From positions 1 to 52,066 of the forward strand of contig JABHQH010000009.1 of NCBI GenBank assembly GCA_018696115.1: 52,066 nucleotides of DNA, given 5' to 3'. The DNA comes from an archaeon. GTDB taxonomy: Archaea; Nanobdellota; Nanobdellia; Pacearchaeales; GW2011-AR1. Position 1 is the stretch's first letter. Each line of letters opens with the position of its first letter. Positions 1 through 47,275 of this stretch are shown here, in pieces. The notes under the pieces were generated by a model. The model saw only the letters and a list, made by a program, of their open reading frames with translations. It had not been told where the DNA came from and did no database searches. Position numbers and translations under genes: made by a program.

Positions 1-113
1 TTAAGTCTTGTCGACCACCTACTGGTGACATATCAATTGTAGATATTTTTTGTTTTGTATTCATAGCTTTTTCTAAAAAAAATCTGTCCCCGCGATTGGT
101 CAAAAGGGTGCTA

Positions 114-186
114 CGCTCCCGCCGGGATTTGAACCCGGGTCACTGCCGTGAAAGGGCAGCATCCTTGGCCACTAGACTACGAGAGC
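114..186 (-). tRNA. tRNA-Glu (anticodon UUC), 73 nt, no intron, CCA not encoded
   Basis: Reverse complement folds as a canonical cloverleaf. Acceptor GCTCTCG/CGGGAGC has one G.U pair. Anticodon stem CTGCC/GGCAG with loop CTTTCAC gives anticodon TTC. T-arm is CCGGG-TTCAAAT-CCCGG. Confidence 0.8.
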
Positions 187-366
187 ACTACTCGCGTGGT
201 CTTCATGAAACGGTAAACCGTTACTTTAGACTACGAGAGCATGTCTTTATTCACCAATTTTCACTTTTAAAGCTTACGCATCATCAAATAATCTCCCGGC
301 CGTCGTTACTGATACCTCCCTAAAATGAATCAAAACACATAAAAAGCAACAAATCCCTTAAATCCT

Positions 367-2018: not shown

Positions 2019-2136
2019 TGAGCCTACGGAGATTTGAACTCCGGACCTCTGGCTCTCTTCGAGTGAAGTGAGCTAACGTTCTAGCGAACATCCATCTTAT
2101 AAGACCAGCGCTCTAACCTGGCTGAGCTATAGGCTC
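2019..2136 (-). tRNA. intron-containing tRNA; anticodon loop CUUAUA|A suggests UAU (Ile) or a modified decoding tRNA; ~43-nt intron at canonical 37/38
   Basis: Reverse complement shows acceptor GAGCCTA/TAGGCTC, D stem GCTC/GAGC and anticodon 5' stem CTGGT with loop CTTATA. After a ~43-nt insert comes A+GCCAG (the 3' stem), then T-arm CGGAG-TTCAAAT-CTCCG and discriminator A. Confidence 0.55.
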
Positions 2137-3370: not shown

Positions 3371-3469
3371 TTCCATCGAGGCGAGATGGTGAATGATTTG
3401 CTCTTGAACAAGATTAAAAATACTCCAGAGCAAATTATGAATTTGAGATTATGACAAAGTAAGAATTTT

Positions 3470-3961
3470 CTAAACATGTCCTGGACAAAGCACATCATAA
3501 TCAAGACCCCTTAACAAGGCTAAACTTTCATCCATCTTCTCTGGTTCGCTCTCTTCTAAATCTCTCCTACCGATCCCACTTCCGTGAAAAAGCGTATCTC
3601 CTGAAAATAAAAATTTCTTGTACAAAAGAGCAATACTATCAAAGGTATGTCCTGGGCAACGGAAAACTTTCATCCCTTCAATCTCCAAATCATCAATATT
3701 TTCATTATTAAAGATCTCAGCGTTGGAGAAAACTCCCGCATTTTCAACATGATCCCAATGTGTATGTGTTAAAATCAAGGTATCAACACTTGCAGGATCA
3801 ATCTTTAGCTTATCCAAATCTTCAAGCAACTCTTCCTTATTCTTTTTAGTAGAAGTATCAATAATAACCTTTCTTCCATCAGCTAGCTTAAAATAATAAA
3901 CACAAGAACCAAACTGAGAAAAACACATCTGAGAAATTTCATCTGAGATTATATTTATCAT
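3470..3961 (-). CDS. metallo-beta-lactamase fold hydrolase (short)
   Basis: HxHxDH motif (LTHTHWDHV) plus downstream His/Asp ligands (CPGHT, GDTLFHG). Confidence 0.65.
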
Positions 3962-4380
3962 TCTCCAATCACCTTAACTAAAACTCGTTTATCTCTTCGC
4001 CCATCAAATTCTCCATAAAAAATCTGTTCCCACGGCCCAAAATCTAGCTGTCCATCAGTTATAGCAACAACAACTTCTCGCCCCATTATCGTTCTCTTCA
4101 AATGAGCATCCCCATTGACCTCTCCAGTTCGATGATGCCTATATCCGTCAGGTGTTGCCCGAGTCGGAGCCAACTTCTCAAGCCATTCCATAAAATCTTC
4201 CTTCAACCCCGATTCTTCATCATTAATAAAAACCGAAGAAGTAATATGCATAGAATTAACAAGAGCAATGCCTTCCTTAATTCCAGAATCAATAATCGCT
4301 TCCCCAACATCTCGAGTGATATTAACAATTTCCTTCTCCTTTTCTGTCCGAATCAGAAGGTGTTTCATGAAACTTTTCAT
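3958..4380 (-). CDS. YjbQ/UPF0047 family protein (secondary thiamine-phosphate synthase-like)
   Basis: Family-typical stretch [16 protein letters not shown]...[20 protein letters not shown]. 140 aa. 4-nt overlap with the upstream gene suggests an operon. Confidence 0.7.
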
Positions 4381-4476
4381 AAAATCAAGACCCCAATATC
4401 CTTTATATTAATTGTTATACCAAGGCACCTCATTTCTCCCCTAAATATTTATAAACTTATTCAACCTTACCAAATT

Positions 4477-4692
4477 ATGTGGAATAGATTAGCAATGCAG
4501 GAGAGAGAACGTCAAAATAGGTTGCGTAGACAATTAATTGCGAGTCAAATGGAGGCTCAAGGAGCAACTCCGGCAGAAATCAGTCGCGCAATAAATCCCG
4601 ATCGAAAAGTTGATGATTCGCTCGGAAGGGATGAATTATATCTGAGAGAACCTTGCCACATAGATCTCCCGCCACCTTACAATCCTAATTAA
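4477..4692 (+). CDS. small hypothetical protein (~71 aa), Arg/Gln-rich N-terminus
   Basis: Internal Met of ORF 4102..4692 that lies in an otherwise empty gap. A TTTATAAAC box sits ~25 nt upstream, consistent with an archaeal leaderless transcript. The 5' part of the long ORF is antisense to yjbQ. Confidence 0.3.
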   Translation: MWNRLAMQERERQNRLRRQLIASQMEAQGATPAEISRAINPDRKVDDSLGRDELYLREPCHIDLPPPYNPN

Positions 4693-7325: not shown

Positions 7326-8072
7326 ATGAGCAAACAAATAAACGAACAAATAAAACCATATGCGGATCTTCTAGGTATACGTAATAGATCAGCGCAGTTT
7401 GCAGGTGCAAATCTTAGAGGGATAGATCTTAGAAGTGCAGATTTTTCATATGGAAATTTTGGAGGAGCAGATCTCCGATGGGCAAATCTCCGATGGACAA
7501 AGCTTACTGATGCATATCTTAAAGGCGCAGATCTTAGAATGGCAGATCTTGAATGGGCAGGCCTTCACGAAGCAAACCTTCAAGATACAGATCTTAGAGG
7601 GGCAAATCTTACTCATGCACGTTTTTGTGACGCAAACCTTGAAGGTTCGAATCTTCATGAAGCAGAACTTGGCGATGCATCTATGATATATGCAAATTTT
7701 AGCGGGGCAAATCTTCAAAATACATATTGTCAAGGTGCAAGGCTTTGCGGGTCAAAGTTTATAGGGGCAGATCTTAGAGGGGCAGATCTTACCCATGCAG
7801 ACCTTTGTAGCGCAACTTTTCAAGATACAGATCTTAGAGGGGCAAATCTTCGCGAAGCAAATGCCTATGAAGAATATTATAAGGCAACTTTTCAAAATGC
7901 AGATCTTAGAGGGGCAGATCTTAGCGGGGCAAATCTTCAATATGCAAATCTTATAGGAACAGATCTTAGAGGGGCAAATCTTGAAAATACAGATCTTAGA
8001 GGAATACGCGTTGATAGCCCTAATGGAAAGCATTATCAGTGGTCAAAGAGAAATGAACTACGAGAAGAGTAG
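7326..8072 (+). CDS. pentapeptide-repeat protein
   Basis: About 40 consecutive A(D/N)LxG/ADLRGANL pentapeptides. AGGAGG lies 8 nt upstream. A T-rich tract at 8095-8130 follows the stop. Confidence 0.85.
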   Translation: MSKQINEQIKPYADLLGIRNRSAQFAGANLRGIDLRSADFSYGNFGGADLRWANLRWTKLTDAYLKGADLRMADLEWAGLHEANLQDTDLRGANLTHARFCDANLEGSNLHEAELGDASMIYANFSGANLQNTYCQGARLCGSKFIGADLRGADLTHADLCSATFQDTDLRGANLREANAYEEYYKATFQNADLRGADLSGANLQYANLIGTDLRGANLENTDLRGIRVDSPNGKHYQWSKRNELREE

Positions 8073-8170
8073 TAAAGTAGCTAAGCATTTATCTAAAAAA
8101 GAGGTGATTTTTTTATTTTTTTAAATTGTATTAGTTGATACATTTTCCAATAAGGTATACAATATACTAA

Positions 8171-35106: not shown

Positions 35107-37797
35107 TCAACTAAAAATATCTTCCTTCTTCCTTTCTTCAACTATTTCGATATCACTTGGCTCTGAATTTGGCCGTTCAAATTCTTCAGTATTAGTTTCA
35201 GCAGGTTCCTTATCCACTACTTCAATATCACTTTCTGGAGCCCTAGCTTCTTCCCCATTTCTTTCTGATCCTTCGCTAGAACTATCAACAACTTCAATAT
35301 CATTTTCTTTGTCAACCTGCCTAACTCTCTCTGCTTCATCTTCTACTCGCTCATTCAATTCTTTCTCAACAGATTCCCTATCTCCGATCGGTTCAATTAC
35401 ACTTTCTCCTCCCGCATTTTCTGGGTTTTCTTCTCTCCGAGGATTATTTTCTACAACCTTATTTCCTTCATTTTCTACAACCCCCCCATTATTTTCCTTA
35501 ATGTTTCCATCAACATCTCCACCCTTATCGCCCCCCTCCAATCTCAAAACTAACTCCGAGATTTCCTTAGCAACATCCGCATTAACAGAGATAGAATCAA
35601 TTCCCTGCTTAACTAAGAATTCAACCATCTCTTTTTTAGAACCTGCCTGCCCACAAATAGAAGTCTCAACCCCCTGCTTTCTACATTCACGAATCACTCG
35701 GGATAATTGTTTCAAAACCGCCCAGTTCATTTCATCATAGATATATTGAACATCTTCATTTCCTCGATCAATTGCAAGAGTATACTGCGTCAAATCATTT
35801 GTTCCAAATGAAATAAAATCAAGTCCAACTTCACAAAGATCTTTTATCAAGATTGAAGCGGCAGGAGTCTCAATCATAACTCCAAATTGAACATTACTAA
35901 TTCCCATCTCTTCAAAAATCTTCTTAGCTGCCTTTACCTCATCAACAGAAATAACTTGGGGAAACATAACTCCAAATTTATGTCCCTTATCTGCAAGTTC
36001 CTTAATTGCTCCAAGCTCTGCCTTAAAGATTCCAAGATGTTTCAGTGAAAACCTAATCCCGTGATTTCCTAACATTGGATTCTTTTCAATCTCTTTTGGG
36101 GCACCCTTTAGATTAGCATATTCATCACTTCGGATATCTGAGGAACGGATCCAGATTGGCTTTCCAATAAATGTTTCAGCAATCTTTCCAAGACCCTTAA
36201 CTAACATGGCCTTATACTCTTCTAAGGTTCCTTCAGCCTCATAAGCAATCGGGTGTTTTCCTGCAGATGCGATTAAACCTTCCAATCGAACAAGTCCAAC
36301 ACCGTCCGCATTTGTCTTAGCCGCTCGCTCAGCATATTCTGGTAAGTCAACCATAACTTTTATTCGAGTTTTAGTTTTAACAATTGGCAAGATTTCAACC
36401 TTCTTACTCTGAGCTCTTCCAGAATAAACCTTACCCCTAAAACCATCCACTGTAACTTCCTGACCATCTTCCAAAACCTCTAACGCATTATCTGTCCCAA
36501 CAACTGCGGGAATACCCATTTCACGAGATACAATCGCTGCATGTGCTGTGATCCCCCCCTCACTAGTAATAATCGCCGCAGCCTTTTGCATAGTTACAAC
36601 CATGTCCGGATTAGTCATTGCAGTAACAAGAACATCACCTTTTCGAATCTTGCCCAAATCTTCCATAGACTTAACAATTTTAACAACTCCTGAAGAAATC
36701 CCTGGAGATGCGGCAAGTCCTTCCGTTAAAACTGGTCCTTCAAGTTCGTCTCCCTCACCCTCTTCCTTGCCATCACTCCCTGCTTTCAAGGTCGTAATCG
36801 GCCGAGTCTGTAAAATATATATATCCTCATTCTCAATTGCAAATTCAATATCTTGCGGTTTCTTGTAATGTTCTTCTAATTTAATCGCATATTCTGCCAA
36901 CTGCTTCAATTCATAAGTTTTCAAAACTCTCTGTCCGGATTTTTCTGGGCTTAATTGAACTGTTTTTGTAATTCCTGATGCATCTCTAACAATTGCAATT
37001 TTCTTCTCAGCAATTTTCTCATCTACAAGATCAAAAGCCCTAGAAACTGTTTGCTGGTCTGGTTTGATTTTCCCAGAAACAATACCTTCCCCTTGTCCAA
37101 AGACAGATTCTACCAAGACATCGTCCGTGTTTTTTACTGGATGTCTAGAAAAAATAACTCCGGACTTATCTGAATTAATCATTTTCTGAACAATCGCGGC
37201 AATACCCACAAGATCTTCAAATCCTTTCTTCTTTCGGTAATATATCGACCGGGCTGTAAAAATAGATGCAAAAACTCGCTTGACTTTTTCAATCAAATCA
37301 TCATTTCCCTTAACATTGATAAAACTTTCTTGCTGTCCTGCAAAACTTGCATCTCCCAAATCCTCTGCAGTGGCCGAACTTCTAACTGAAACAAAAACAG
37401 GCTCACGAGCAGATTTCAAAATGGCCAATGCTCCAGGGGAACTTTCAAGACCGCTCAAATCAACATTAAAATTATCATAGGCTTCCAAAATTTCACTTCT
37501 AAGATCCTCGGGCATTTCCGCAGCAACCATGATTTCCCTAATCTCCTTAGCTTTGCTCGAAAGACCATCAGTATCATCAACATCAATCTTATTCAAAATC
37601 TCTCGAATCTGATCCTTAATCTCCGTCTTTTTCAAAAAATGATCAAATGCCTTAGTTGTGACAACAAAAGCCTGGGGAACCGGAAATTTTGAATTAAACA
37701 TTTCACCAAGATTAGCCCCCTTACCTCCTGCGAGCTTAACATCTTTCTTAGATAAATCGGAAAGCCATGCAATGTACCCCTCTTTCATAAATTCCAA
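35107..37797 (-). CDS. ppsA: phosphoenolpyruvate synthase with ~140-aa acidic repeat-containing C-terminal extension
   Basis: N-terminal ATP-grasp start (LSDLSKKDVKLAGGKGANLGEM), phospho-His domain (GGITAHAAIVSREMGIPAV), and PEP-utilising TIM domain. The tail contains SDIEVVD/SDIEIVEE repeats. Confidence 0.9.
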   Translation of the reverse strand: MEFMKEGYIAWLSDLSKKDVKLAGGKGANLGEMFNSKFPVPQAFVVTTKAFDHFLKKTEIKDQIREILNKIDVDDTDGLSSKAKEIREIMVAAEMPEDLRSEILEAYDNFNVDLSGLESSPGALAILKSAREPVFVSVRSSATAEDLGDASFAGQQESFINVKGNDDLIEKVKRVFASIFTARSIYYRKKKGFEDLVGIAAIVQKMINSDKSGVIFSRHPVKNTDDVLVESVFGQGEGIVSGKIKPDQQTVSRAFDLVDEKIAEKKIAIVRDASGITKTVQLSPEKSGQRVLKTYELKQLAEYAIKLEEHYKKPQDIEFAIENEDIYILQTRPITTLKAGSDGKEEGEGDELEGPVLTEGLAASPGISSGVVKIVKSMEDLGKIRKGDVLVTAMTNPDMVVTMQKAAAIITSEGGITAHAAIVSREMGIPAVVGTDNALEVLEDGQEVTVDGFRGKVYSGRAQSKKVEILPIVKTKTRIKVMVDLPEYAERAAKTNADGVGLVRLEGLIASAGKHPIAYEAEGTLEEYKAMLVKGLGKIAETFIGKPIWIRSSDIRSDEYANLKGAPKEIEKNPMLGNHGIRFSLKHLGIFKAELGAIKELADKGHKFGVMFPQVISVDEVKAAKKIFEEMGISNVQFGVMIETPAASILIKDLCEVGLDFISFGTNDLTQYTLAIDRGNEDVQYIYDEMNWAVLKQLSRVIRECRKQGVETSICGQAGSKKEMVEFLVKQGIDSISVNADVAKEISELVLRLEGGDKGGDVDGNIKENNGGVVENEGNKVVENNPRREENPENAGGESVIEPIGDRESVEKELNERVEDEAERVRQVDKENDIEVVDSSSEGSERNGEEARAPESDIEVVDKEPAETNTEEFERPNSEPSDIEIVEERKKEDIFS

Positions 37798-38029
37798 GAG
37801 CTATACGATTATTTAAAGTTTGTTGTAATAATTTCACTATCTTAGAACCTGCCAGAATCAGAATATCTCATAGTATAACCGAATCGCCCACTAACTGGGG
37901 AACTATCATACTTATTTTGGTTCCATTCATACGGTGATCCCGAAGGCCTTTCAAACACATATCCTTTGGATTCACCATCTCCACATCCACATGCCATATT
38001 ATCTCAATGAATATTAGTCTTTTATGACT

Positions 38030-38285
38030 TTCGGTCAAATCTACGAAATAAAAAACACAAAGTATGTCCTACAACATATATGATACAATATCTATATTGC
38101 AATATACTATATTGCACCACATACATTGGGACAAATAAAAAACCAAACTTTGCCCTAAGGGCACCAAATCATCCGAATTTTAAGACCGAATTTTAAGAAA
38201 TAAAAAATGCAAATAAAAAACCAAACCCAAAATCTACGAAATAAAAAACACATAATCAAATAAAAAACACAAATCCAAAGGCGAG
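38030..38285. repeat. AT-rich iteron-like direct-repeat block at the compositional boundary
   Basis: The 22-nt AATCTACGAAATAAAAAACACA occurs twice, at 38038-38059 and 38231-38252. At least 6 copies of the AAATAAAAAAC(A/C) core are present. CCGAATTTTAAGA is in tandem at 38174-38199. Confidence 0.6.
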
Positions 38286-38361
38286 GAGCCCAAACAGTCA
38301 GTAAACTGAAAGTTGGGCCCCTGCCTTGGATACTACGTCTTGACCACCCAGTTAATTGGAC

Positions 38362-38823
38362 TTACTTGGGCGGATACAGAATCATAAGAATAACCAGGAA
38401 GAAGCAGACGGATATCACAACAAGCGAAGGAACGCTCGGAATGTAATATCCTTCGAGTCTTTCAATCTCCTGGAAACTGAAGACGCCACGCCCTTTTTCT
38501 CCACAATCCACATGGTACCTGTAACCTTTTTCTGCGCCACCAAAATCCCAATCCCGAATAACGCCTATCTTCCCTTCGGCAGCGGTATCCCGTTGGACGA
38601 TCTTGATTTGATCATTGATGTGATACGCCGGGCCCCACCACCAGCAGAGGAAGTAAACTCCTGCAAGGAGGAGAATCAGGACCGCCCACCCCCGGGGAGA
38701 TATCTCATTCAACTTTTTGGCAACCGCCCTTAGGGGACGGTAAACGACCAGCAAGGCAATGAACCCCCCAATCGTGGCCAACACCTGCCAATGATCACCG
38801 GCTATTTTCAAAAGTTCATCCAT
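38362..38823 (-). CDS. 3-TM membrane protein, paralog family member A
   Basis: Shares NWQVLAT, WWxGPxYxIND, GxIGVIRDW, Y.Y.V.CG and GPYIP.(V/I)P with the three downstream paralogs. AAGGAAG SD upstream. Confidence 0.7.
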   Translation of the reverse strand: MDELLKIAGDHWQVLATIGGFIALLVVYRPLRAVAKKLNEISPRGWAVLILLLAGVYFLCWWWGPAYHINDQIKIVQRDTAAEGKIGVIRDWDFGGAEKGYRYHVDCGEKGRGVFSFQEIERLEGYYIPSVPSLVVISVCFFLVILMILYPPK

Positions 38824-38921
38824 ACGTCACTTCCTTTCATTCTGTCAATTCTCTTTCTTCTAGCTCATGCACACACTGCACGAGTAATGCAAGTAAAAAA
38901 TACTCCCCCTGTCAAGGGCAA

Positions 38922-39377
38922 TTAATCCAACTTATCCCGGACGATCACCAGGAAGCTTCCCAGAATAAATATGATGAAGGATGGAATTCCGGGGATATAG
39001 GGGCCACCCAAACTCCTTATCTCCGCGAACAGAAACTTATGCTTTGCCCCCCCACACTCCACAAAGTAGGAGTAGTGGGCCATTTCAAGTTTCCAATCTC
39101 TGACCACTCCAATTTTCCCGTTGAGCTCGCTTTGCAGTCGCGTAATCTCAACTTCATCATTGGCGCCATAGACTGGGCCCAACCACCAGCTGAAACAATA
39201 AACTATCACTGCAAGGAAAACTATCCCGAAGATCGTCCACATCAGCCACTTTCCGGCTACGCGCCCCCGATCAATAGCTTTTCTTACCAAACGATAGCCC
39301 ACAACCAGAACAGCGCAGGTAGCCAACGTGGCCAGCACTTGCCAATTGTCACAGGCCATTTTCCAAAGATCATTCAT
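38922..39377 (-). CDS. 3-TM membrane protein, paralog B
   Basis: Same conserved motifs. Start set at the Met aligned with the paralogs (MNDLW). GAAAGGAAATGAAGTT lies upstream. Confidence 0.7.
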   Translation of the reverse strand: MNDLWKMACDNWQVLATLATCAVLVVGYRLVRKAIDRGRVAGKWLMWTIFGIVFLAVIVYCFSWWLGPVYGANDEVEITRLQSELNGKIGVVRDWKLEMAHYSYFVECGGAKHKFLFAEIRSLGGPYIPGIPSFIIFILGSFLVIVRDKLD

Positions 39378-39410
39378 AACTTCATTTCCTTTCATTTCGA
39401 TTATCACAAC

Positions 39411-39464
39411 CTCCCAAGGGAGAGCTAGTCATCCGGCCCACTGCCAAACAATCTAGCTCCCCCT
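39411..39464 (-). promoter_or_regulatory. conserved ~54-nt intergenic element, copy 1 (imperfect 11-bp inverted repeat GGGGGAGCTAG...CTAGCTCTCCC with ~30-nt loop)
   Basis: About 85% identical to the copy at 40030-40083. Lies between the paralog C stop and the paralog B start. Confidence 0.5.
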
Positions 39465-39502
39465 TACAATCGACCTCTTAATCGAGAGAACGACAACTAC
39501 GC

Positions 39503-39997
39503 CTAGTCACTCGCGCCTTCTTTCAGCTTCAGGGAATCCATATTCGCGGCGAGAGCTATCAGGCTTCCGATTATCATCAGGATAAGCGGAAAAACACTCG
39601 GGATATAGCAGGGGCCTTCAAACCTTTTGAGTTCCTGGAAGTGGAATTTTCCCAGTTCTTTCGCCCCATAATCCACATGATAGATGAATCCCCCTGGACG
39701 AGGACTTTCCCAATCACGGATTATTCCGACCTTTCCTTCCTCGGGGGTATCTCGTTGGACGATCGTGACCTTTTCGTTGATACCATACACCGGTCCAAGG
39801 CCCCATGCGAGGAAGTAAATCACTGCCGAGACAATTACCATCCATACGAGGGTCTTCAACACCCAACCCGTAGTGAGATTCACATACCTGGAAGCAACCT
39901 TCTTTCCCAAGCGATAAATCACGAAGAGGGAGGCGAAGACAGCCAATGTGGCAAATACCTGCCAGTTGTCGCTCACCATGTTAACAAACTCTTTCAT
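39503..39997 (-). CDS. 3-TM membrane protein, paralog C
   Basis: Same family motifs. GAAAGGAACGAGATATG at the start. Confidence 0.7.
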   Translation of the reverse strand: MKEFVNMVSDNWQVFATLAVFASLFVIYRLGKKVASRYVNLTTGWVLKTLVWMVIVSAVIYFLAWGLGPVYGINEKVTIVQRDTPEEGKVGIIRDWESPRPGGFIYHVDYGAKELGKFHFQELKRFEGPCYIPSVFPLILMIIGSLIALAANMDSLKLKEGASD

Positions 39998-40029
39998 ATC
40001 TCGTTCCTTTCGTTCAATTCATCAAAACC

Positions 40030-40083
40030 CCCAAAAGGGAGAGCTAGTCATCAAGCCCAATGCCCAACAATCTAGCCCTCCCA
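40030..40083 (-). promoter_or_regulatory. conserved intergenic element, copy 2
   Basis: GGGAGAGCTAGTCATCAAGCCCAATGCCCAACAATCTAGCCCTCCC. Confidence 0.5.
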
Positions 40084-40098
40084 AGGGTAACGCCATCG

Positions 40099-40587
40099 TC
40101 AATATCCGAAGTTCGAAGAGGATTTATTCAGGACGGGTAATCGCAAGTAGATCACCACACAAACCCCGACGGCCATTAAAACAAGGATTGGAATGCCCGG
40201 GATATGGGGCCCGTTTAACCTCTTCAGGTGCTCAAAACGGAGGCCGTAGGGTTCATCTCCCTTACAATAAACAGAATACACATAGCCATTGCCCGGAGCG
40301 AGACAATTCCAGGATCTGATTATCCCAGTTTCACCATTTACGTCGCTTCGGGGATAAACTATCTCGACTTCGTCGTTGATATGATACGCCGGACCCCACC
40401 ACCAGGTAAAGAAATAGATCCCGGCTACCACAACAACTGCCAACATGACCGTCTTCAGGAACCATCCACGTGGCAATCCCCGGTACTTGGAAACAACCCT
40501 CCTTACCACACGATAGCCCATCAGCAAGGCGACACATCCTGCCAGGGTGGCAAACACTTGCCAATGTCCAACAATAAACTCTTTCAT
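40099..40587 (-). CDS. 3-TM membrane protein, paralog D
   Basis: Same family motifs. GAAAGGAACGAGTTATG at the start. Confidence 0.7.
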   Translation of the reverse strand: MKEFIVGHWQVFATLAGCVALLMGYRVVRRVVSKYRGLPRGWFLKTVMLAVVVVAGIYFFTWWWGPAYHINDEVEIVYPRSDVNGETGIIRSWNCLAPGNGYVYSVYCKGDEPYGLRFEHLKRLNGPHIPGIPILVLMAVGVCVVIYLRLPVLNKSSSNFGY

Positions 40588-40678
40588 AACTCGTTCCTTT
40601 CATTATCTATCTTCATCCCATCTTGCCCGCACACTATGCACGAATAAAACAAGTAGGAAGTAAGTCTTCAGGCGGCGG

Positions 40679-41968
40679 TCAGGAAGGAGAGGCCAGTTTT
40701 ATCAGCTTGACCTTTATTTCATCCTTGCTATCCCACCCATATTCGGCCGCTTCCGCAAAGAGATCCAGCCACCATTCGAAGTCGCCGTCACCGAGTTCCA
40801 TCAACTTTCCAAGGAAGATTTCTCCGAGATTGTCAGATTCTCCATCTCCGAGCATCTTGTCGTAGGTCTCTTTCCAGAGATTGAAGTCGCTACACTCCAA
40901 CTCTCTGAATATTTCGATTATCCTATCCTCAGAAGGCGAGGAACCCTCTGCGTTTGTGAAGAACTCCCACCATTTGTCCGGGCCCCAATTCCTGGGTCGT
41001 TCTTCTATCTGGGTGAGGATCAGTCTTTGCCTGTCATGATCTCCATCAAACATCCCGAAGATAGCCTCCCAGTTCTCAAAGGATACCTCTTCTCTCCCTT
41101 CGAGTCTTTTAATGAGGGCATCACACATATTTTCCCAGCCATTATCGTTTGCTTCTTCCAGGAATCCTTTCAATGTCTCGAAATCTTCCTGGGGGAGTTC
41201 GGCCACATTTTCTTCGAGAGCATTGTCCGTAGTTTCATCATCGGCCACCCTATAGGCCTCCATGAGTTGCCCCATGGTGGTCACTCTCTTGACCAGTTCT
41301 TCACCGATCCTTTCCTCGTGCTGATTGTAGCAGTCCCCACGAAGGGTGCACAACTGTTCAAGGGAGGGATTGGAAGATAAGAGCAGATCGAGGAAAAGAT
41401 CTGCGACCATCTTCTTGATGCCCATCTCTTCCTTATCGGCCTCTCCAGATTCTGTATAGATGGTTTTTGCCTGATCGAAAGTTTGGATGGATCCGCCTAC
41501 ATTTTCGAGAGCGGTCTGTCTGAGGGGAGATCCAGCTTCAGCCACTTCAAGGACAGACTCCCAATCTTCCGGAGTCCTTGCCCTTCGTGAGATCTGCTCC
41601 AGGACTGAACTTTTGAGCGAGGCGTCTCCAGACCTTATGGCCGCATGGCAAAGCTTGATCCAGTTTCCGAATTCCGATCCCACACGTTGGAGCATCTGCG
41701 TTCCAGCGTGCCGGTGAAGCTCTGACAAATCTTCATTGCCTATCGAGAGTTCGAACAGTCTGAGGTTATTCTCGAATGTTGAAGCCAATCTGGCGGCTTC
41801 ACCAAGGGCGCGTTTCTTGAGGGGCTCTTCGGCCTCTCCACTGTAGTACACCTCGATCCACCGATCGAAATTCAGATCGGGGGGAGGCGCGTTATCTTGC
41901 ACATTCCAGATTGCAAGAGCTTTCATTACTCCGACCTGGGCGGCCAGAGATTCAAATGACATTTCCAT
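40679..41968 (-). CDS. all-alpha (HEAT/TPR-like?) acidic Trp-rich protein, hypothetical
   Basis: 429 aa. No TM helix, no nucleotide-binding motif. Confidence 0.45.
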   Translation of the reverse strand: MEMSFESLAAQVGVMKALAIWNVQDNAPPPDLNFDRWIEVYYSGEAEEPLKKRALGEAARLASTFENNLRLFELSIGNEDLSELHRHAGTQMLQRVGSEFGNWIKLCHAAIRSGDASLKSSVLEQISRRARTPEDWESVLEVAEAGSPLRQTALENVGGSIQTFDQAKTIYTESGEADKEEMGIKKMVADLFLDLLLSSNPSLEQLCTLRGDCYNQHEERIGEELVKRVTTMGQLMEAYRVADDETTDNALEENVAELPQEDFETLKGFLEEANDNGWENMCDALIKRLEGREEVSFENWEAIFGMFDGDHDRQRLILTQIEERPRNWGPDKWWEFFTNAEGSSPSEDRIIEIFRELECSDFNLWKETYDKMLGDGESDNLGEIFLGKLMELGDGDFEWWLDLFAEAAEYGWDSKDEIKVKLIKLASPS

Positions 41969-42035
41969 AAGGATTACCTTCTTTCGTATTATTCTACTTT
42001 TTCGATCTATCCCAACACGATGTCAGGACTCTGTT

Positions 42036-42551
42036 TTATCCGTCACTCCGACCTTCAATTTTCTCCAGCTTTTGGATGACTGCACGCCGGACTTCGCTTC
42101 CCTGGGGGGTTCCGAAATAGACATAGGTGGCCTCCCGTTCCCCTTCAGCTTGTTCGAAGTCTTGCCAGCACTGCGGGATCCATTTTTGGCGGATAGCCCT
42201 CCTTATATCTGAATCTTCCGGAGTGCAAAGATACAGGATCTTCAGTCCCAGTGCACTGTTGGCAGCAAGGCACCTGGACAAATGGATCCTTTCAATGCGA
42301 TTCACAAACTCCGGACTGACCTTCCCGCCGAGGATAACACGAAGGTAGAGCTCGAAAAGCTGTTCCTTGTTCTTCGCATTTTCCAAATGGCCGATAAAGG
42401 TCAGATCATCCATCTCTTGGAGATCCTGAACAAGGCGAATCTGGGAATTCATTAAAGCTTCCCTCGAAAAGCTTTCTTCCTTCACCGAACACCCCGGAGA
42501 CGTCAGGGATCCACAACAGACAACAACCAACAACCAACAAGGCAGTTTCAT
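42036..42551 (-). CDS. putative lipoprotein, hypothetical
   Basis: Start taken at MKLPCWLLVVVCCGSLTSPGC, a signal peptide with an L-x-x-C lipobox. The ORF could extend to 42620. Confidence 0.5.
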   Translation of the reverse strand: MKLPCWLLVVVCCGSLTSPGCSVKEESFSREALMNSQIRLVQDLQEMDDLTFIGHLENAKNKEQLFELYLRVILGGKVSPEFVNRIERIHLSRCLAANSALGLKILYLCTPEDSDIRRAIRQKWIPQCWQDFEQAEGEREATYVYFGTPQGSEVRRAVIQKLEKIEGRSDG

Positions 42552-42648
42552 AACAATTCTCCCTTCAGAGAACAAGGAACAGCGCCGGGCACCCCCCAAT
42601 AAAACATTACCCGGCCCCATTCAGGTTAGTGAAAAATCAGGCCATCAA

Positions 42649-43239
42649 TTATTCGGCATCGGCAGTCGGAATGTCGCTGAGATCGATCGGAGATCCGTCC
42701 GCTCCGCGGTAGGTCCTGAGGAGGATGTCCTCTTCGATGTGGCGTTCGTCGCCATTCGGAAGTTTGATTCGGATTACTCCTTCCTTATCGCGGATAGCGA
42801 GAACCACGTCTTTTTCGTCACGCTTCACGATCCCAGTATAGTCATCGACCATGCGACCAGCCGGCGAAAGATGATCATCCACGAAGTCAGTGTCGGCAGT
42901 GTACTGGTCACCGCACCCCTGCTCGCCTGCTGCTATAAGGATATCGTCCAGGTTATCTACCGTGGGCGGAGTCTCCATCATATCCAGAAGTGCCTCGGCG
43001 ATTTCGCCAGGAACTTCGTTGAGGATAACAACGCCTTTTTCACCGTCTGCGCCCTGCCAGGTTCCGTCGCCGTCACCGTCAGTTTCGTTGAGAACGAGAA
43101 TCACCGGACGGTCGTTATTCTGGCCATATCCGGAGACTTCCATATCCTGTTCGAATGCCACAACGACATCACTCGCGGGAACCTTGAAGATAAGCTTGCG
43201 GGTTGCGGAAACGATTTTAAGACCTTTATCAAAATTCAC
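42649..43239 (-). CDS. acidic Asp/Gly-rich protein, hypothetical
   Basis: 196 aa. DGDGDG stretch and possible Ca-binding loops. Confidence 0.4.
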   Translation of the reverse strand: MNFDKGLKIVSATRKLIFKVPASDVVVAFEQDMEVSGYGQNNDRPVILVLNETDGDGDGTWQGADGEKGVVILNEVPGEIAEALLDMMETPPTVDNLDDILIAAGEQGCGDQYTADTDFVDDHLSPAGRMVDDYTGIVKRDEKDVVLAIRDKEGVIRIKLPNGDERHIEEDILLRTYRGADGSPIDLSDIPTADAE

Positions 43240-43492
43240 AATATTCTCCTTTCTCCGTTTTGGGGAGAAAAAAAGTAAGGCCCTAACTCTTGTCAGAACC
43301 TAAAGATTCCAGCAACTTGCCAGGATCCTTTTAATGTAATGCCATGTTACGTCCCAAAAACTTATCTCCTAATCCTGAGGAGTGTTTCGAATGTGCTTCA
43401 CAAAACTCCAGATCGCAATCACTCCAGAAAAAGTGGCCCCCGAAGCGATTAAAATCCCTGCAATCTGCTGTGTCATTTCTACTCCTTTCTGG

Positions 43493-44596
43493 TCAGCTCT
43501 CCTTTGAGCCAAACCATTTACGATAGATTTCATCGTATTTACCGCTTTTCCGAATCTTCAACAAGGCGCGGTTAATCTCTTCTCGAAGATTGCTTCCTTC
43601 AGGTACGGCGAAGCCGTAGTATTGTTTGTCGAAAATCGGACCGACAACCCCCACTTCATCCGGGTGTTGCTGGGCGAAGAAAAGGACACTTGGGGAATCG
43701 AAGACAACCGCATCAACCTTCTCCTTAAGCAGGAGATCATACGATTCTTGGATAGAAGGTGTAGCAACCACCTTAGCTCCAAGGCCCTTAAGTGTCGTAA
43801 CACTTGTAGTGCCTTGTGCAGTGGCGACCGTCTTTCCTCTGAGATCTCCCGGATGGTTGATCACCGATTCAATGGCCTCGATTTCCCGGACCGTAAAAGC
43901 TGTGATGATCGGAGCAGAGACAAGGCCGACAATAACGCAGCCGTTGAGGAAGAGGGGGATGGTTAAGAGCCTTCCCCAAGTCTTCTTGGGATAGATATCT
44001 CCAAAACCTATGGTGGTCTTAATTGCCCAGACACACCAGCATGCATCGAAGAATCCTTTCCAATCGTCTGCGATTACGTCTGCACCCTGTTCAGCCCGCC
44101 ACAACAAGAATCCCCAAACGAAGAATCCAATGAAGAGGATTCCCAAAAGCCCTGCCATCTCCCAGTTGAACAGTCTTCGGAAAATAGACGAGAGGATCGA
44201 GGCCTTTTTCTTCTGACCTTTGACAACGATCCTCAATCCGGAATTCATATAGTGGTGTGAGAAGTCGAAATTCTCTTCCCGATCCGCGGTAATAAAGATC
44301 CCGGACACTGCCACATCAACCTTCCCTGCCTTAACATCCTGCAGAAGTTGGTCAAATTCCGAACCCTTGTACTGCTTGTACTCAATCTCCCAGTTGAGTT
44401 CTCCAGCAATCGCCTCAATTATTTCGATGTCTGATCCCGAAAGGCCAGACTTCGTTGAGGAACTTTCCATCACGCATGGGCGGAAGATTCCCGCACCAAT
44501 AGTGATTTTCTTTTTTTCCTGCGCTTGCACCGGGGAAACGACTGCCGCCAGAACAAGTACACCAATAACAATCAGAAAGGCGGTTTTTTGCTTCAC
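43493..44596 (-). CDS. GluR0-type ligand-gated potassium channel (prokaryotic ionotropic glutamate receptor homolog: SBP lobe1 - M1 - P-loop - M2 - SBP lobe2)
   Basis: Signal peptide, then a periplasmic-binding-protein family-3 lobe. Then TM helix, pore helix plus TTIGFGD selectivity-filter-like motif, and a second TM helix. The protein ends with the second SBP lobe (YGFAVPEGS). Confidence 0.7.
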   Translation of the reverse strand: MKQKTAFLIVIGVLVLAAVVSPVQAQEKKKITIGAGIFRPCVMESSSTKSGLSGSDIEIIEAIAGELNWEIEYKQYKGSEFDQLLQDVKAGKVDVAVSGIFITADREENFDFSHHYMNSGLRIVVKGQKKKASILSSIFRRLFNWEMAGLLGILFIGFFVWGFLLWRAEQGADVIADDWKGFFDACWCVWAIKTTIGFGDIYPKKTWGRLLTIPLFLNGCVIVGLVSAPIITAFTVREIEAIESVINHPGDLRGKTVATAQGTTSVTTLKGLGAKVVATPSIQESYDLLLKEKVDAVVFDSPSVLFFAQQHPDEVGVVGPIFDKQYYGFAVPEGSNLREEINRALLKIRKSGKYDEIYRKWFGSKES

Positions 44597-44883
44597 CTTG
44601 AGCTCCTTATATCGGAGGTTATTGAAATAGAAAAAACATCATTTCTTTTTTCGCTGTCTTCTCCCCCCTCCCGAAGATAAGCGTTCCATGAGCCTTCCCC
44701 AGATTTGTTCAGCTAAGCTCATCGCCTCGGCATCCTTTCTAGGATCGGCAAAAGCCTTACCTGCAAATCTTCTGGGCAAGTTCCATGTTTGTTGTTCTGA
44801 GCTATTCATTGCTCGTTCCTTTCTCCACGCCTAAGGTGGGGATTTATTGGTCAATCAACGTCTTGCGGACCGACTTGCAGGCA

Positions 44884-45384
44884 TTAGTCCACGTATTTAC
44901 CAACAATCTCCATGAACATGGATGTAACATAGTAACTTCTTCCATTGTACCCAAGGAAACCCCGATCCTTCAGGGTGAGGATAGTTCTCTCAGTAAATTC
45001 CTCACCCGCATCCTTGGCCTCAATGAGTTCTTCGAGGGAAAATGACACCCATCCATCTTCCTTGTTGTTTTTAAGGACCCAGATGATGTTCTCAACAGCA
45101 TCTTTCTCGCCCTGGTCTTTCCATGAAGGATCCCCGAGGGCATTATCTGCATTGACATCGCTCGGGAGGAACTTTTTGCTTTCTTCGATGACCTTCTTGC
45201 CGATAGAGGCCAAGTTCGTTCGGTTTACTCCCGATCGGAAGATTATTCCTGCATATTTCACAATTTCGGCGCTTTCGAAGACTTCGTCATCGGAGGTTAA
45301 CAAAGAAGCTTCGGCCAGGTATACTGCTCCTGCAGCTTCATTCAACAACCCCTCCTCATCGCCAGAGAGTTCTATTTTATGCAT
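44884..45384 (-). CDS. hypothetical protein
   Basis: 166-aa ORF, acidic. Confidence 0.4.
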   Translation of the reverse strand: MHKIELSGDEEGLLNEAAGAVYLAEASLLTSDDEVFESAEIVKYAGIIFRSGVNRTNLASIGKKVIEESKKFLPSDVNADNALGDPSWKDQGEKDAVENIIWVLKNNKEDGWVSFSLEELIEAKDAGEEFTERTILTLKDRGFLGYNGRSYYVTSMFMEIVGKYVD

Positions 45385-45506
45385 GTGCTTTTCTCCTTAC
45401 GTCTCGGTTATCTTGATATAGAAAAAGAACGAGGCCGGGCACCTCCCCAATAAATCACTACCCGGCCCCATTCAACCAATCCCTCAATATTCAACTATTG
45501 CTTTGT

Positions 45507-45764
45507 TCAGTCGTCGCAACCACCGCCGTCATCGCCGCCGCTATCGTAGTCGCTGTCATCGGAGCACGAGGATTCCGGTTCGGGCTCGGGATCCGGCGCA
45601 GGGGCAGGTTCCGGAGCGGGTTCGGGCATGGGTTCGGGCTCGGGAGCCTGCGGGGTTTCATCCAGTTCAACAGTCTGCTGACTGGTAACAGTTCCCGAAT
45701 CGGCTTCTCCGGATCCGGTGTCCTCAACGTTAGTTTTCACGGCCTGGTCATTCGTTTCAGTCAT
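45507..45764 (-). CDS. small acidic Pro/Glu-rich (PEPEP repeat) protein, hypothetical
   Basis: Start at MTETNDQ is preceded by AAAGGAAAGG. Three overlapping ORFs arise from the GC-rich repeat here. The minus-strand frame is chosen because of the SD and co-orientation with its neighbours. Confidence 0.35.
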   Translation of the reverse strand: MTETNDQAVKTNVEDTGSGEADSGTVTSQQTVELDETPQAPEPEPMPEPAPEPAPAPDPEPEPESSCSDDSDYDSGGDDGGGCDD

Positions 45765-45863
45765 TGTACCTTTCCTTTCTTGGTACTGTGTAAAAAACCT
45801 GCGTCGTAACATTACGACGACTATTGGTACTGCAATTCAACATTCAACTATCGAGATTCGAGT

Positions 45864-46439
45864 TTAGCCCTCTTTTACGAGGACGCGGATGTTTCTGTCA
45901 TCCACCGCATGGCCGAGGTGAGCTTCGTAGCTATTACTGTCCCATCGTTCGATTCCCATGCAGAGGGAATCGTTCGAATTGTAGTAGTCCCAGTAATAGT
46001 ACCTCTCACCGTTTCCAGAGCGGTCGCGGTAGAAGGTGGCATCATTATCGTCATCATAGCGGAATAACTCTGCACCATAACTGAAGTCTTCTTCTTCTTC
46101 CAGATCTCTTGAACCGATGCCAAGAGCTTGAAGCTTCAGAAGTTCCGTATAGATGTAGATCTCGATCGAGTCGTCCTCTTCCCACTCGAGGTAGCAGATC
46201 TTGCCACTTACGAGCGAAGTAAGGCGCAACTCGAACCACTCGGTGGTTCTGCCGTCCCATGTTTCGGAGTAGCGATTCATCTCATCGGCGTAATACACTT
46301 CGTTGCCGATCTGGATGTAACCACCGACCCTTACGTCTATAATCGATATCTGAATCTGATCGGCTTCCGACATGGGCACAGGCATTTGGCGGATGAGTCT
46401 TAGGCGTTCGGCCTGTGAGACTGTTTTGTATGTTCTCAT
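45864..46439 (-). CDS. hypothetical protein (beta-rich; possibly DUF4178-like)
   Basis: 191 aa. Aromatic/acidic-rich. No catalytic motif. Confidence 0.4.
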   Translation of the reverse strand: MRTYKTVSQAERLRLIRQMPVPMSEADQIQISIIDVRVGGYIQIGNEVYYADEMNRYSETWDGRTTEWFELRLTSLVSGKICYLEWEEDDSIEIYIYTELLKLQALGIGSRDLEEEEDFSYGAELFRYDDDNDATFYRDRSGNGERYYYWDYYNSNDSLCMGIERWDSNSYEAHLGHAVDDRNIRVLVKEG

Positions 46440-46451
46440 TTTGAAGCCTCC

Positions 46452-47114
46452 TTAGGCTTGTACTACCTGTTCAAGGAATTTGGCTTCTGTTGTAGCCGAA
46501 GCGAAGTCACCATCCCTAGCCTTGTCAGCTATGGAAACGATACGTTCCTGGAGAGCCGTGAGCGCCGAGACCGTTGCTTCCTTGGCTCGAATGCGCTCTT
46601 CCGCAGCCAGTTTTACAAAGAGGCGGATCTGCTTGGGGAGGTAATCCTCAATGACACGCCCGAGTGTGATGTTAACTTGGGATCCCAGGTTCGTCGGATC
46701 AACCTCTTCAACGATCCAGGTCAGCTGATCCACGATATCGTCAACCAGGGAGATGATAGCCTCATCCCGTAAGGGATCATTCATCACCTGAAGGCTAATC
46801 GCAGCCAGTTGATCAATCCGCTTTGCGGAGTTATCCGGAGGCAGATCTTCAGGGGCGGCGACAGCAGGAGGCCCAGTGCCCGATGGCGATTGAATCTTGA
46901 CTTTCGGGGTTTCGGGCTCCGGACTTTTCTTAACCACAGCTTCCTGGTCCTTCAAGTACTTCTTGTACGTCAGAAGGCCCCCAATGATCGCAGTCAGGAA
47001 AGCACTACCGATGGCGGTGCCCAAATAGAGGGATCCGAATATCAGCAATGCAATGAGCGTGAGTATATACACTCCCGCAAAGTTAATCAAACCGAGTTTT
47101 ACGTACTTGTTCAA
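46452..47114 (-). CDS. 2-TM membrane protein with Pro-rich linker and C-terminal helical domain (possibly XpaC/TelA-like)
   Basis: Two N-terminal TM helices, a PEPETPKV linker, and a ~120-aa helical domain. Confidence 0.4.
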   Translation of the reverse strand: MNKYVKLGLINFAGVYILTLIALLIFGSLYLGTAIGSAFLTAIIGGLLTYKKYLKDQEAVVKKSPEPETPKVKIQSPSGTGPPAVAAPEDLPPDNSAKRIDQLAAISLQVMNDPLRDEAIISLVDDIVDQLTWIVEEVDPTNLGSQVNITLGRVIEDYLPKQIRLFVKLAAEERIRAKEATVSALTALQERIVSIADKARDGDFASATTEAKFLEQVVQA

Positions 47115-47275
47115 AACAGTACTCCTTAACTAAAGTTCTTCGAAATATTCGGGGCAACCAGCCCAAGGCAAGCCTTCTCATCGAAAGGTAGAAACAAGCA
47201 CCTCCCAACAAGAAACAAGGACTGGCTGCCCCACACAACTACCTCAACATCAAATCATCCGGTGGCTAGGGGAAA

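Follow-up and report, generated by a model that had tools for sequence, protein, structure and literature searches.

A probable horizontally acquired island upstream of the PEP synthase gene in a marine DPANN archaeon

Positions 1 to 52,066 of the forward strand of contig JABHQH010000009.1 (NCBI GenBank assembly GCA_018696115.1), from an archaeon of the Pacearchaeales, were analysed here, and this whole stretch of 52,066 nucleotides is referred to as the window. At approximately 38 kb an AT-rich region of archaeal genes, ending with the gene for PEP synthase (PEPS), gives way to a block of higher guanine plus cytosine (GC) content. This block is compositionally foreign, extends for at least 39 kb and is absent from several close relatives, and the contig is a faithful piece of one genome in which the join between the two parts is real. 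The block is probably a horizontally acquired genomic island, located at a slot upstream of PEPS that is recurrently variable. An earlier note on this DNA, made from the sequence alone, had offered two readings of the switch, a chimeric contig or a large foreign island. The first was refuted by the presence of the same join in at least 11 contigs and at least three metagenome-assembled genomes (MAGs) and by the architecture of a sister species, while the second is supported by the composition, the absence in relatives and the reality of the join.

Composition and gene signals on the two sides of the join

The GC content in 1-kb windows was found to range from 0.35 to 0.43 across 1–38 kb and from 0.46 to 0.53 across 39–52 kb, with overall values of 0.38 to the left of about 38.3 kb and 0.50 to the right of it. 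Windows of 200 bp gave values of 0.30–0.375 for 38,000–38,399 and of 0.46–0.545 for 38,300–38,799, which places the shift between approximately 38,200 and 38,500. The GC content at third codon positions (GC3) had a mean of 0.32 (0.20–0.45) in the 35 genes on the left and of 0.54 (0.31–0.61) in the 15 open reading frames (ORFs) on the right (Mann-Whitney p = 3e-7), and that at first codon positions (GC1) had also moved between the two sets. Comparison of the left and right codon tables gave a chi-square of 1401 (df 60, p ~1e-253), with a value of 107 for a control in which the left genes were split into odd and even ones. Amino acid usage followed, with lysine changing from 9.6% on the left to 6.0% on the right and tryptophan from 0.8% to 2.0%. 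Raw tetranucleotide frequencies gave a correlation of r = 0.98 when one half of the left part was compared with the other, and of r = 0.44–0.50 for left versus right. The abrupt switch that the note had placed at about 38 kb was thus borne out by GC, GC3, codon chi-square and tetranucleotides; sliding GC, tetranucleotide frequencies and codon usage, the checks it had named, were all uneven across the boundary. The deviation in GC, GC3, codon usage and tetranucleotides is that expected of a classical genomic island.

The signals preceding the genes differ between the two sides as well. A Shine-Dalgarno (SD)-like 4-mer at −18 to −4 was detected for 12 of the 15 right-hand ORFs, where it is of the type GAAAGGAG, versus 5 of the 35 left-hand genes. 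An A/T box at −45 to −16 (around −25), which is typical for leaderless archaeal genes, precedes 20 of the 35 left-hand genes and none of the 15 right-hand ORFs, all of which lie on the minus strand. With regard to the fourteen right-hand coding sequences which had been said to start with an SD sequence, the motif was recovered as given above, but the count of fourteen plus two was corrected to 13 confident and two doubtful ORFs. The archaeal-type translation genes reported for the left side were recognised by Pfam as aIF5B, GluRS, a class-I Tyr/Trp-type aminoacyl-tRNA synthetase and ribosomal protein S6e, in addition to the PEP synthase, and an intron-containing tRNA (2019–2136, minus strand, 118 nt) was recognised by Rfam with 58 bits. 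It should be noted that ARAGORN in bacterial mode misses this tRNA. On the right side, a protein with an MVP_shoulder domain and a GluR0-type channel were both backed by Pfam, in agreement with the note.

The last native archaeal gene before the switch encodes PEPS (PEP synthase/pyruvate-water dikinase; 35,107–37,797, minus strand), a protein of 893 amino acids when read from the ATG at 37,788. It has a GC3 of 0.29 and Pfam matches to PPDK_N (340 bits), PEP-utilizers_C (240 bits) and PEP-utilizers (94 bits). When species-representative genomes were scanned with PEPS, 80 loci with 50–80% identity were obtained, whose titles are nearly all Woesearchaeota, Pacearchaeota, Nanoarchaeota or archaeon, with one bacterium. 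The order of genes on the left side, namely PEPS, a nucleotidyltransferase, an AP_endonuc_2 protein and onward to GluRS, is kept in relatives. Judged by these relatives and by the conserved gene order, which also support the label 'DPANN-like' given in the note, the host is a marine Woesearchaeota/Pacearchaeota-type DPANN archaeon. PEPS of the window carries an acidic, low-complexity C-terminal extension of about 140 amino acids (35,107–35,560) past PEP-utilizers_C, which ends at about residue 750 of 896; the called lengths of PEPS in relatives range from 765 to 852 amino acids.

The join and the corresponding slot in related genomes

Exact-protein lookups were made for the genes flanking the junction, adjacency being defined as a gene for a 153-amino acid protein and then PEPS. 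At least 11 independently assembled named contigs were found to share the junction at 99.9–100% identity and to be colinear with the window. Among these are the JGI contigs 3300004111, 3300004109, 3300025659 and 3300072015 (the longest, 385 kb) and the ENA contigs scaffold_50 (177 kb), scaffold_959, SPAdes NODE_1117 and NODE_338, and MEGAHIT k141_152382 and k141_46544; Logan SRR3719505 likewise carries the junction. At least three NCBI MAGs labelled '[archaeon]' also hold it on a single contig with consecutive protein accessions, the numbering across the junction going from MBT3397830 (PEPS) to MBT3397832 (153 amino acids) and the locus tags from HOA55_02495 to HOA55_02820. No other neighbour was seen for PEPS in 34 index blocks or for the 153-amino acid gene in 37 blocks.

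A chimera, in which an assembler fused a DPANN contig to an unrelated contig of about 50% GC at an AT-rich, low-complexity block, is considered extremely improbable in view of these contigs. The composition switch is certainly very sharp and low-complexity A/T repeats are present at the junction, as such a fusion would have it. Two contigs (JABGUY010000006.1 and k141_163692) stop 170–210 bp into the first island gene, and the two sides were put in separate bins by one study, in which positions 38,690–49,157 of the window correspond to JABGYI010000662.1, deposited in GCA_018675375.1 ('Candidatus Bathyarchaeota archaeon'), with the adjoining left part in GCA_018646385.1. However, the join recurs with three assemblers, in several projects and in many samples, the contigs of 177 and 385 kb included, and neither PEPS nor the 153-amino acid gene has an alternative neighbour. 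The longest repeat at the junction, at 23 nt, is far shorter than assembler k-mers (the k141 names pointing to k = 141 for MEGAHIT), and a matching architecture was found in related species from unrelated datasets. The gene in which the broken contigs end is the first of four tandem paralogs, and these, being repeats, provide an ordinary assembly-graph cause for the breaks. JABGYI010000662.1 was probably mis-binned owing to its composition.

In the relatives, the order of genes around this position was found to be an NTP-transferase (~620 amino acids), L35Ae, L10e, a UPF0020 methylase, a small ORF, a HerA/DUF87 ATPase (~650 amino acids), a variable slot, PEPS, the nucleotidyltransferase and the AP_endonuc_2 protein. 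The slot has native GC in three of the related loci, where it measures 1.8 kb (L123, GC 0.33), 4.5 kb (L120, 0.34) and 4.5 kb (L128, 0.38), and in a fourth (L126) a run of co-directional ORFans, at least 10 kb long and also of native GC (0.34), comes after the ATPase. Higher values are seen in a block of ~5 kb in L046 (0.48) and of ~6.7 kb in L037 (0.46), and slots of 1.5–3.5 kb with elevated GC are present in L051, L053 and L055. The sister species SI037S2_bin49, with a PEPS that is 78% identical to that of the window, has a complete slot of 15.9 kb with a GC of 0.486 between flanks of 0.40; this island was joined from two records overlapping by 4,128 identical bases. No homologs of 15 island proteins of the window were found in the 80 related loci. 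Absence from relatives at the syntenic site, as is seen for classical genomic islands, is therefore evident from these 80 loci and from the native slots of L123, L120 and L128.

What the islands of the different species have in common is their position and orientation, the SD motif, one protein family and a tRNA lineage; beyond this, almost no genes are shared. The GAAAGGAG SD sequence was found on 61% of the genes of the sister island versus 0% in its flanks, and a PEP-CTERM protein family is common to this island, the sister species and L046. Tetranucleotide frequencies are correlated at r = 0.72 between the two islands and at 0.44–0.62 between each island and its own flanks. tRNAs are present in the slot only where GC is elevated (this island, the sister species, L046, L051 and L055, with none in L120 and L123), and they differ from the chromosomal tRNA-Val(UAC). 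The acceptor, D and T arms match between the island tRNA-Val(UAC) (L035:132–205, ~39.7 kb from PEPS) and a UCA tRNA of the sister species (L043:497–571, 75 nt).

The UCA anticodon of the sister tRNA would read UGA, and TGA accounts for 1 of 19 stops in the sister island versus 10 of 41 in this island. The idea of stop-codon recoding that arose from this tRNA was rejected, as reading TGA, TAG or TAA as sense did not lengthen plus-strand ORFs in a meaningful way. The slot of the Nanoarchaeota MAG B62T1B5 (L048:5511–6533) was found to encode a 340-amino acid protein matching OMP_b-brl with 31.1 bits (cut-off 28.7), an odd match for archaea, as these have no outer membrane.

Anatomy of the junction and gene content of the block

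The junction had been described as an AT-rich block of about 560 bp with direct repeats, and this description is accurate: positions 37,798–38,361 form a block of 564 bp, AT-rich and repeat-rich, with an exact 23-nt direct repeat (two copies and one degenerate copy), a 17-nt repeat present twice and a 13-nt tandem pair. Read by its motifs, the block is mostly host-type promoter and terminator sequence, since it comprises a BRE/TATA-type element, a conserved CCCAATATATATACTACAATATACTATATT motif, an array of TTTTTTATTT tracts, a motif also found after a native gene, and a terminator-like hairpin. The putative BRE/TATA-type promoter AAACTTTAAATAAT (37,808–37,824, minus strand) lies ~20 nt upstream of the ATG of PEPS and aligns with an invariant AACATTTATATA block in 10 of 10 species; its position and the archaeal TATA consensus suggest that it acts as the PEPS promoter. 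Further upstream, a distal conserved motif with the consensus CCCAATATATATACTACAATATACTATATT, preceded by a T-run (38,080–38,140, minus strand), was recognisable in nine of the ten aligned species (the window, L043, L123, L057, L040, L049, L051, L055 and L053). This motif is 30 nt long, AT-rich and located ~100–330 nt upstream of PEPS, and it is kept with or without an island, L123, L057 and L040 being without a high-GC one. It may serve as a second promoter or a regulator site, or may specify a small RNA.

On the gene strand, the interval 38,046–38,267 (minus strand) contains six TTTTTTATTT tracts, which are embedded in the 13–23-nt direct repeats. Six of the ten AAATAAAAAA sites of the window fall in this interval, where 1.27 would be expected for the window as a whole. 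The same T-tract motif follows the native gene 7326–8072, at 8109–8118. It is suspected that the array represents oligo-T transcription terminators, which probably insulate PEPS from the co-directional island genes. Directly after the stop of the last island gene in reading direction (38,362), a long hairpin followed by a U-run resembles an intrinsic terminator (38,274–38,331, minus strand). The minimum-free-energy fold of the minus strand of 38,225–38,365 has −44.6 kcal/mol versus a shuffled mean of −30.6 (z = −3.84, with 0 of 200 shuffles equal), and a comparable hairpin, GCGGCCAGCTCA...TGAGCTGGCCGC, occupies the corresponding position in the sister species. As the CCCAATATATATACTACAATATACTATATT motif marks the outermost sequence that is still native, the edge of the island lies between ~38,140 and 38,362, which confines the composition boundary to ~220 bp. 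The possibility that the junction block is an att-type scar was rejected, since most of it is host-type sequence.

The high-GC block was followed beyond the window on JGI contigs and on ENA scaffold_50, where the GC content stays at 0.42–0.58 for 39.2 kb (38,252 to 77,476). These 39.2 kb contain 46 genes at a coding density of 0.89, with 90% of the coding sequence on the strand of PEPS. The only meaningful Pfam matches among the 46 proteins are the GluR0-type channel, the MVP homolog and a PEP-CTERM tail. PHROGs gave six families for the 46 proteins, two of them K+-transporter families and four of unknown function, and ten island proteins of the window which were scanned separately had no PHROGs match.

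The first genes of the block are the four tandem paralogs (38,362–38,823, 38,922–39,407, 39,503–39,997 and 40,099–40,587, minus strand), which encode proteins of 153–164 amino acids with two transmembrane (TM) helices, a small beta-barrel and a C-terminal TM helix each. They are mutually 37–42% identical with 27 invariant columns and have a GC3 of 0.55–0.59. An AlphaFold model of a paralog has a pLDDT of 69, and its barrel weakly matches SH3/Tudor/PsaE-type folds (best E 2.9e-3); the model being mediocre and the barrel matches generic, a function from structure was rejected as uninformative. A profile of the paralogs gave four matches with E <= 1e-10 among 1.84 billion representatives, which correspond to the four paralogs themselves, one of them being the cluster representative of the 153-amino acid protein, plus three weak matches. 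The other ORFan family tested matched only itself and one paralog among 5.8 billion proteins. By these sequence searches, the two ORFan families tested are without relatives outside this genome.

Three ORFans with a GC3 of 0.55–0.57 follow on the minus strand, at 40,679–41,968 (429 amino acids), 42,036–42,620 (171/194 amino acids, with a signal peptide) and 42,649–43,239 (acidic, 196 amino acids). No Pfam or PHROGs family was found for them, and their exact proteins are present in NCBI MAGs labelled '[archaeon]'. The ORF at 42,036–42,620 has an SD sequence only with a start at Met24, which is the 171-amino acid call of JGI. The note had reported a bacterial-style signal peptide and lipobox on the right side. 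The signal peptide was retained for this protein, but the proposed lipobox, LTSPGC, was rejected as departing from the canonical pattern [LVI][ASTVI][GAS]C; signal peptides as such occur in all domains of life.

The gene at 43,493–44,596 (minus strand) is predicted to encode a GluR0-type ligand-gated channel with an N-terminal signal peptide and a periplasmic-binding-protein fold split by a two-TM K-channel pore. Pfam detected SBP_bac_3 (1.5e-29, residues 47–363), with Ion_trans_2 (7e-11) inserted at 168–234, and Lig_chan-Glu_bd (1.7e-8). A ligand domain interrupted by a two-TM P-loop pore, as is characteristic of the GluR0 type, is thus predicted. Four further ORFans of 166, 101 (doubtful, low-complexity), 191 and 220 amino acids lie at 44,884–47,114 (minus strand) and are all called in most independent assemblies; they have no Pfam or PHROGs family save for one low-complexity match.

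The MVP homolog (47,276–50,032, minus strand) is a protein of 918 amino acids with an acidic low-complexity insert. The shoulder domain is present at residues 586–695 (MVP_shoulder, PF11978, 87.4 bits with a cut-off of 25), and a single match to Vault_3 has 24.5 bits, under its cut-off of 28.8. The best outside matches are 38–44% identical, and all the named ones are bacterial (Eremiobacterota, Planctomycetota, Myxococcota and Riflebacteria). Alignments to bacterial MVP-like proteins of 810–890 amino acids extend over 96–98%, and this full-length alignment suggests the same architecture for the 918-amino acid protein. It is also 38.5–39% identical, over 84–85% of the length, to ORFs of the huge-phage records LR756500, LR756501 and LR756503 (462–735 kb). 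No plasmid match was found, and no other archaeal MVP match was present among the top 120.

At the end of the window (50,233–52,033, minus strand) a doubtful ORF of 67 amino acids with a GC3 of 0.31 is accompanied by a membrane ORFan of 494 amino acids (within 50,549–52,066), neither of which has a Pfam or PHROGs family, and the block runs off the window end. A 453-amino acid paralog of the 494-amino acid gene, with identical first 29 residues, is located just past the window (L015:8513–9874, in the stretch L015:8513–11485) and is missing in some strains (L012, L018). Many contigs end near the 494-amino acid gene because of this 453/494-amino acid repeat and strain indel, and the end of the window itself is probably due to the repeat as well. 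The PEP-CTERM tail belongs to a protein just outside the window (L015:4323–5297). Paralog families in the island comprise the four small TM proteins, the 453/494-amino acid pair, a 283/268-amino acid pair and at least three 'MKARNRKVNTMKRTIMM' proteins. Three island proteins past the window (L035:270–962, 2157–2876 and 3383–4648) have a similar short N-terminal segment. The first of them has a GspF/PilC N-terminal domain (PF28597 T2SSF_N; TIGR02120 E = 4e-4, weak) and the other two were likened to it by eye; this might hint at a secretion- or pilus-related set.

A separate site of variation is found at the opposite end of the window (1–200), where assemblies break or diverge just left of a tRNA-Glu(UUC) at 113–187. 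In some strains a tyrosine integrase (384 amino acids) and an N6-methylase are found there (L022:1–2130, L023:1–1392), and the 385-kb contig has UvrD, NUMOD3 and SnoaL genes instead. This site appears as a second, classical tRNA-adjacent integration hotspot, of native GC.

Origin of the block and its significance

If the block is a horizontally acquired island, as is held probable, its DNA would have entered by horizontal transfer from a higher-GC gene pool. The vector would most likely have been a mobile or virus-like element, the mobility genes of which were lost or are kept beyond the 39 kb, and repeated transfer or turnover of islands would have occurred at the slot in several species. Transcription of the island genes would proceed in long co-directional units and would be stopped ahead of the PEPS promoter by the hairpin and oligo-T array, and the SD sites would serve for translation on the host ribosome. 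The host ribosome can presumably use the GAAAGGAG sequence, because the native AT-rich gene 7326–8072 (GC3 0.20) carries it (tgaaaggaggt). Membrane or secreted proteins make up most of the predicted products, and the island is therefore likely to influence the cell envelope and contacts with partner cells.

The SD motif was rejected as proof of a bacterial origin, given its presence on the same native gene. The switch of lineage to Bacteria which the note had seen holds in so far as the MVP homolog, the GluR0-type channel and the PEP-CTERM tail look bacterial, but the ~43 other genes have no Pfam family; with the OMP beta-barrel in the L048 slot added, the bacterial-looking items are few.

Several observations weigh against horizontal acquisition or limit how it is to be read. 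No integrase, transposase, recombinase or replication gene and no virus hallmark gene (capsid, portal, terminase) was detected with Pfam, PHROGs and NCBIfam among the 46 island proteins and 51 proteins of the relatives' islands, and the mobility genes of a classical genomic island are thus lacking in the ~39 kb read. The island was absent from IMG/VR in three protein scans and one tRNA-sequence scan. The proximal edge has no tRNA or tRNA fragment and no flanking direct repeat, and the island tRNAs sit inside the islands, not at their edges. A search for att sites found no fragment of the slot tRNAs in the junction and no repeat of more than 12 nt linking the ends of the sister island. Within the species the island is fixed and shows next to no variation (99.9–100% identity), which is not how an active mobile element would behave. 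None of the top 120 matches proved to be an ortholog of the HerA-like ATPase on the contigs of this genome, the five candidates examined being from other species, and for this reason the island could be far larger or synteny could be broken. It should also be noted that 39.2 kb is a lower bound on the length of the island, the contigs running 60–366 kb beyond the part read, and that the join was judged from assembled contigs, for which SPAdes coverage tags are given per contig only. The split binning in one study fits composition-based binning, yet a chimera would predict the same.

An integrated provirus, or part of a very large virus-like or Borg-like element possibly exceeding 100 kb, would account for the dense and uni-directional genes, mostly without known family, and for the tRNAs inside the islands, including the UCA-anticodon tRNA of the sister species. 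MVP homologs with ~39% identity are present in phage records of 462–735 kb, and the block reaches the limit of the sequence read, with contigs that go on for 60–366 kb. This origin is considered improbable, however, in view of the missing capsid, portal, terminase, integrase and replication genes (46 and 51 proteins by Pfam, 46 by PHROGs), the four empty IMG/VR scans, the lack of any sign of stop-codon recoding and the fixed, invariant state of the island in the population. With no IMG/VR record and no PHROGs hallmark gene, virus origin was set aside as a candidate. A direct and recent transfer of a stretch of Gram-negative chromosome without a mobile vector, possibly from the partner of the archaeon, was judged to be quite unlikely. 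The bacterial MVP homologs, the channel with its signal peptide, PEP-CTERM tails in the islands of three species, the OMP_b-brl protein in the L048 slot and an SD site on nearly every island gene speak for it, and transfer from host to DPANN archaeon has a precedent in the 36.5-kb island of Mia14 (PMC5498576). Yet identity to bacterial proteins reaches ~42% at best, and a bacterial housekeeping or operon context is absent. Despite the deep sampling of Saanich Inlet, searches among 5.8 billion and 1.84 billion proteins gave no outside relatives for the ORFan families tested. The SD motif is also found on a native gene, and the position, SD motif and tRNA lineage shared across species point to a common vector or source and not to random pieces of chromosome.

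The block might also be a native compartment, that is, a vertically inherited and fast-evolving envelope region with a composition of its own (for example through biased gene conversion). The same slot is used across many species, the PEP-CTERM family and tRNA lineage are common to the islands, an SD motif compatible with the host is used, terminators of host type are present at the edge and L126 has its long run of co-directional ORFans at native GC after the ATPase, all of which would agree with vertical inheritance. Such a compartment is hardly probable, as the slot is without high GC in L120, L123, L128 and L126, and GC1 and amino acid usage are shifted in addition to GC3. No mechanism is known to us by which a 12-point difference in GC could be maintained over at most 220 bp in a small genome, and this too argues against it.

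Beyond a horizontally acquired island as such, a more far-reaching idea, which is put forward tentatively and is itself unlikely, is that of an undescribed family of high-GC elements. These would be without an integrase, would always land in the same slot upstream of PEPS (beside the HerA-like ATPase gene in relatives) and would bring their own tRNAs together with Gram-negative-type envelope genes (PEP-CTERM, OMP beta-barrel, MVP and GluR0), and the element could perhaps reach at least 100 kb here. Such a family would bear witness to continued gene flow into a DPANN symbiont, from a bacterial partner or the phages of that partner, or else would constitute a new giant integrated element.

The feature belongs to a known kind, namely a genomic island in a DPANN genome, and its unusual aspects are the recurrent slot, the consistent GC excess, the tRNAs inside the islands and the lack of mobility genes in the part read. 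Among documented cases, the island of 'Ca. Mancarchaeum acidiphilum' Mia14, which has 36.5 kb and 41 genes and was attributed to lateral transfer (PMC5498576), comes closest. Both are compositionally distinct blocks of tens of kilobases in a small DPANN genome, absent from relatives and with many uncharacterised genes. In Mia14, however, the donor, a Thermoplasmatales host, can be identified and the insertion split a gene, whereas here the donor is undetectable and the slot is intergenic and variable in other species too; the GC offset of +12 points, its recurrence in several species and the lack of outside relatives for the tested genes also set the present island apart.

The 'dark matter' islands of archaeal genomes, said to have been treated by Makarova et al. 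in Extremophiles in 2014, reportedly hold uncharacterised small genes, often from integrated mobile elements. The present island resembles them as a cluster of small uncharacterised genes rich in predicted membrane or secreted proteins, but they are usually recognised by integrases or by virus or plasmid genes, and none of these was seen in the 39 kb that were read. Hypervariable 'metagenomic islands' for cell-envelope genes are known from Haloquadratum, from SAR11 as its hypervariable region and from Prochlorococcus. With these the island has in common a fixed position, envelope-related or ORFan content, atypical composition and lineage-specific content; metagenomic islands differ among strains of one species, however, whereas here variation is seen between species and not within the species. 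Bacterial and phage homologs of MVP have already been described (bioRxiv 10.1101/872010; bioRxiv 10.1101/2023.11.10.566534). The protein of the window is like these in its shoulder domain and its long alignments (~96% with bacterial and 84–85% with huge-phage proteins) and differs in its identity of only 38–44%, its acidic insert and its location on an archaeal chromosome.

The contig is trustworthy, and binning by composition will break this genome up wrongly; an island fragment is public already in a 'Bathyarchaeota' MAG. At least 39 kb of genes with a foreign composition, mostly for membrane proteins of unknown function, are maintained in a streamlined DPANN archaeon. Their translation signals are compatible with the host, and the edge of the block carries a putative terminator array of host type. 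The interest of the locus would be greater if the unread part were to reveal a vector or a very large element. Should a common vector or a bacterial source lie behind the signatures shared between the islands, the locus could be of use in identifying the partners and mobile elements of marine Woesearchaeota.

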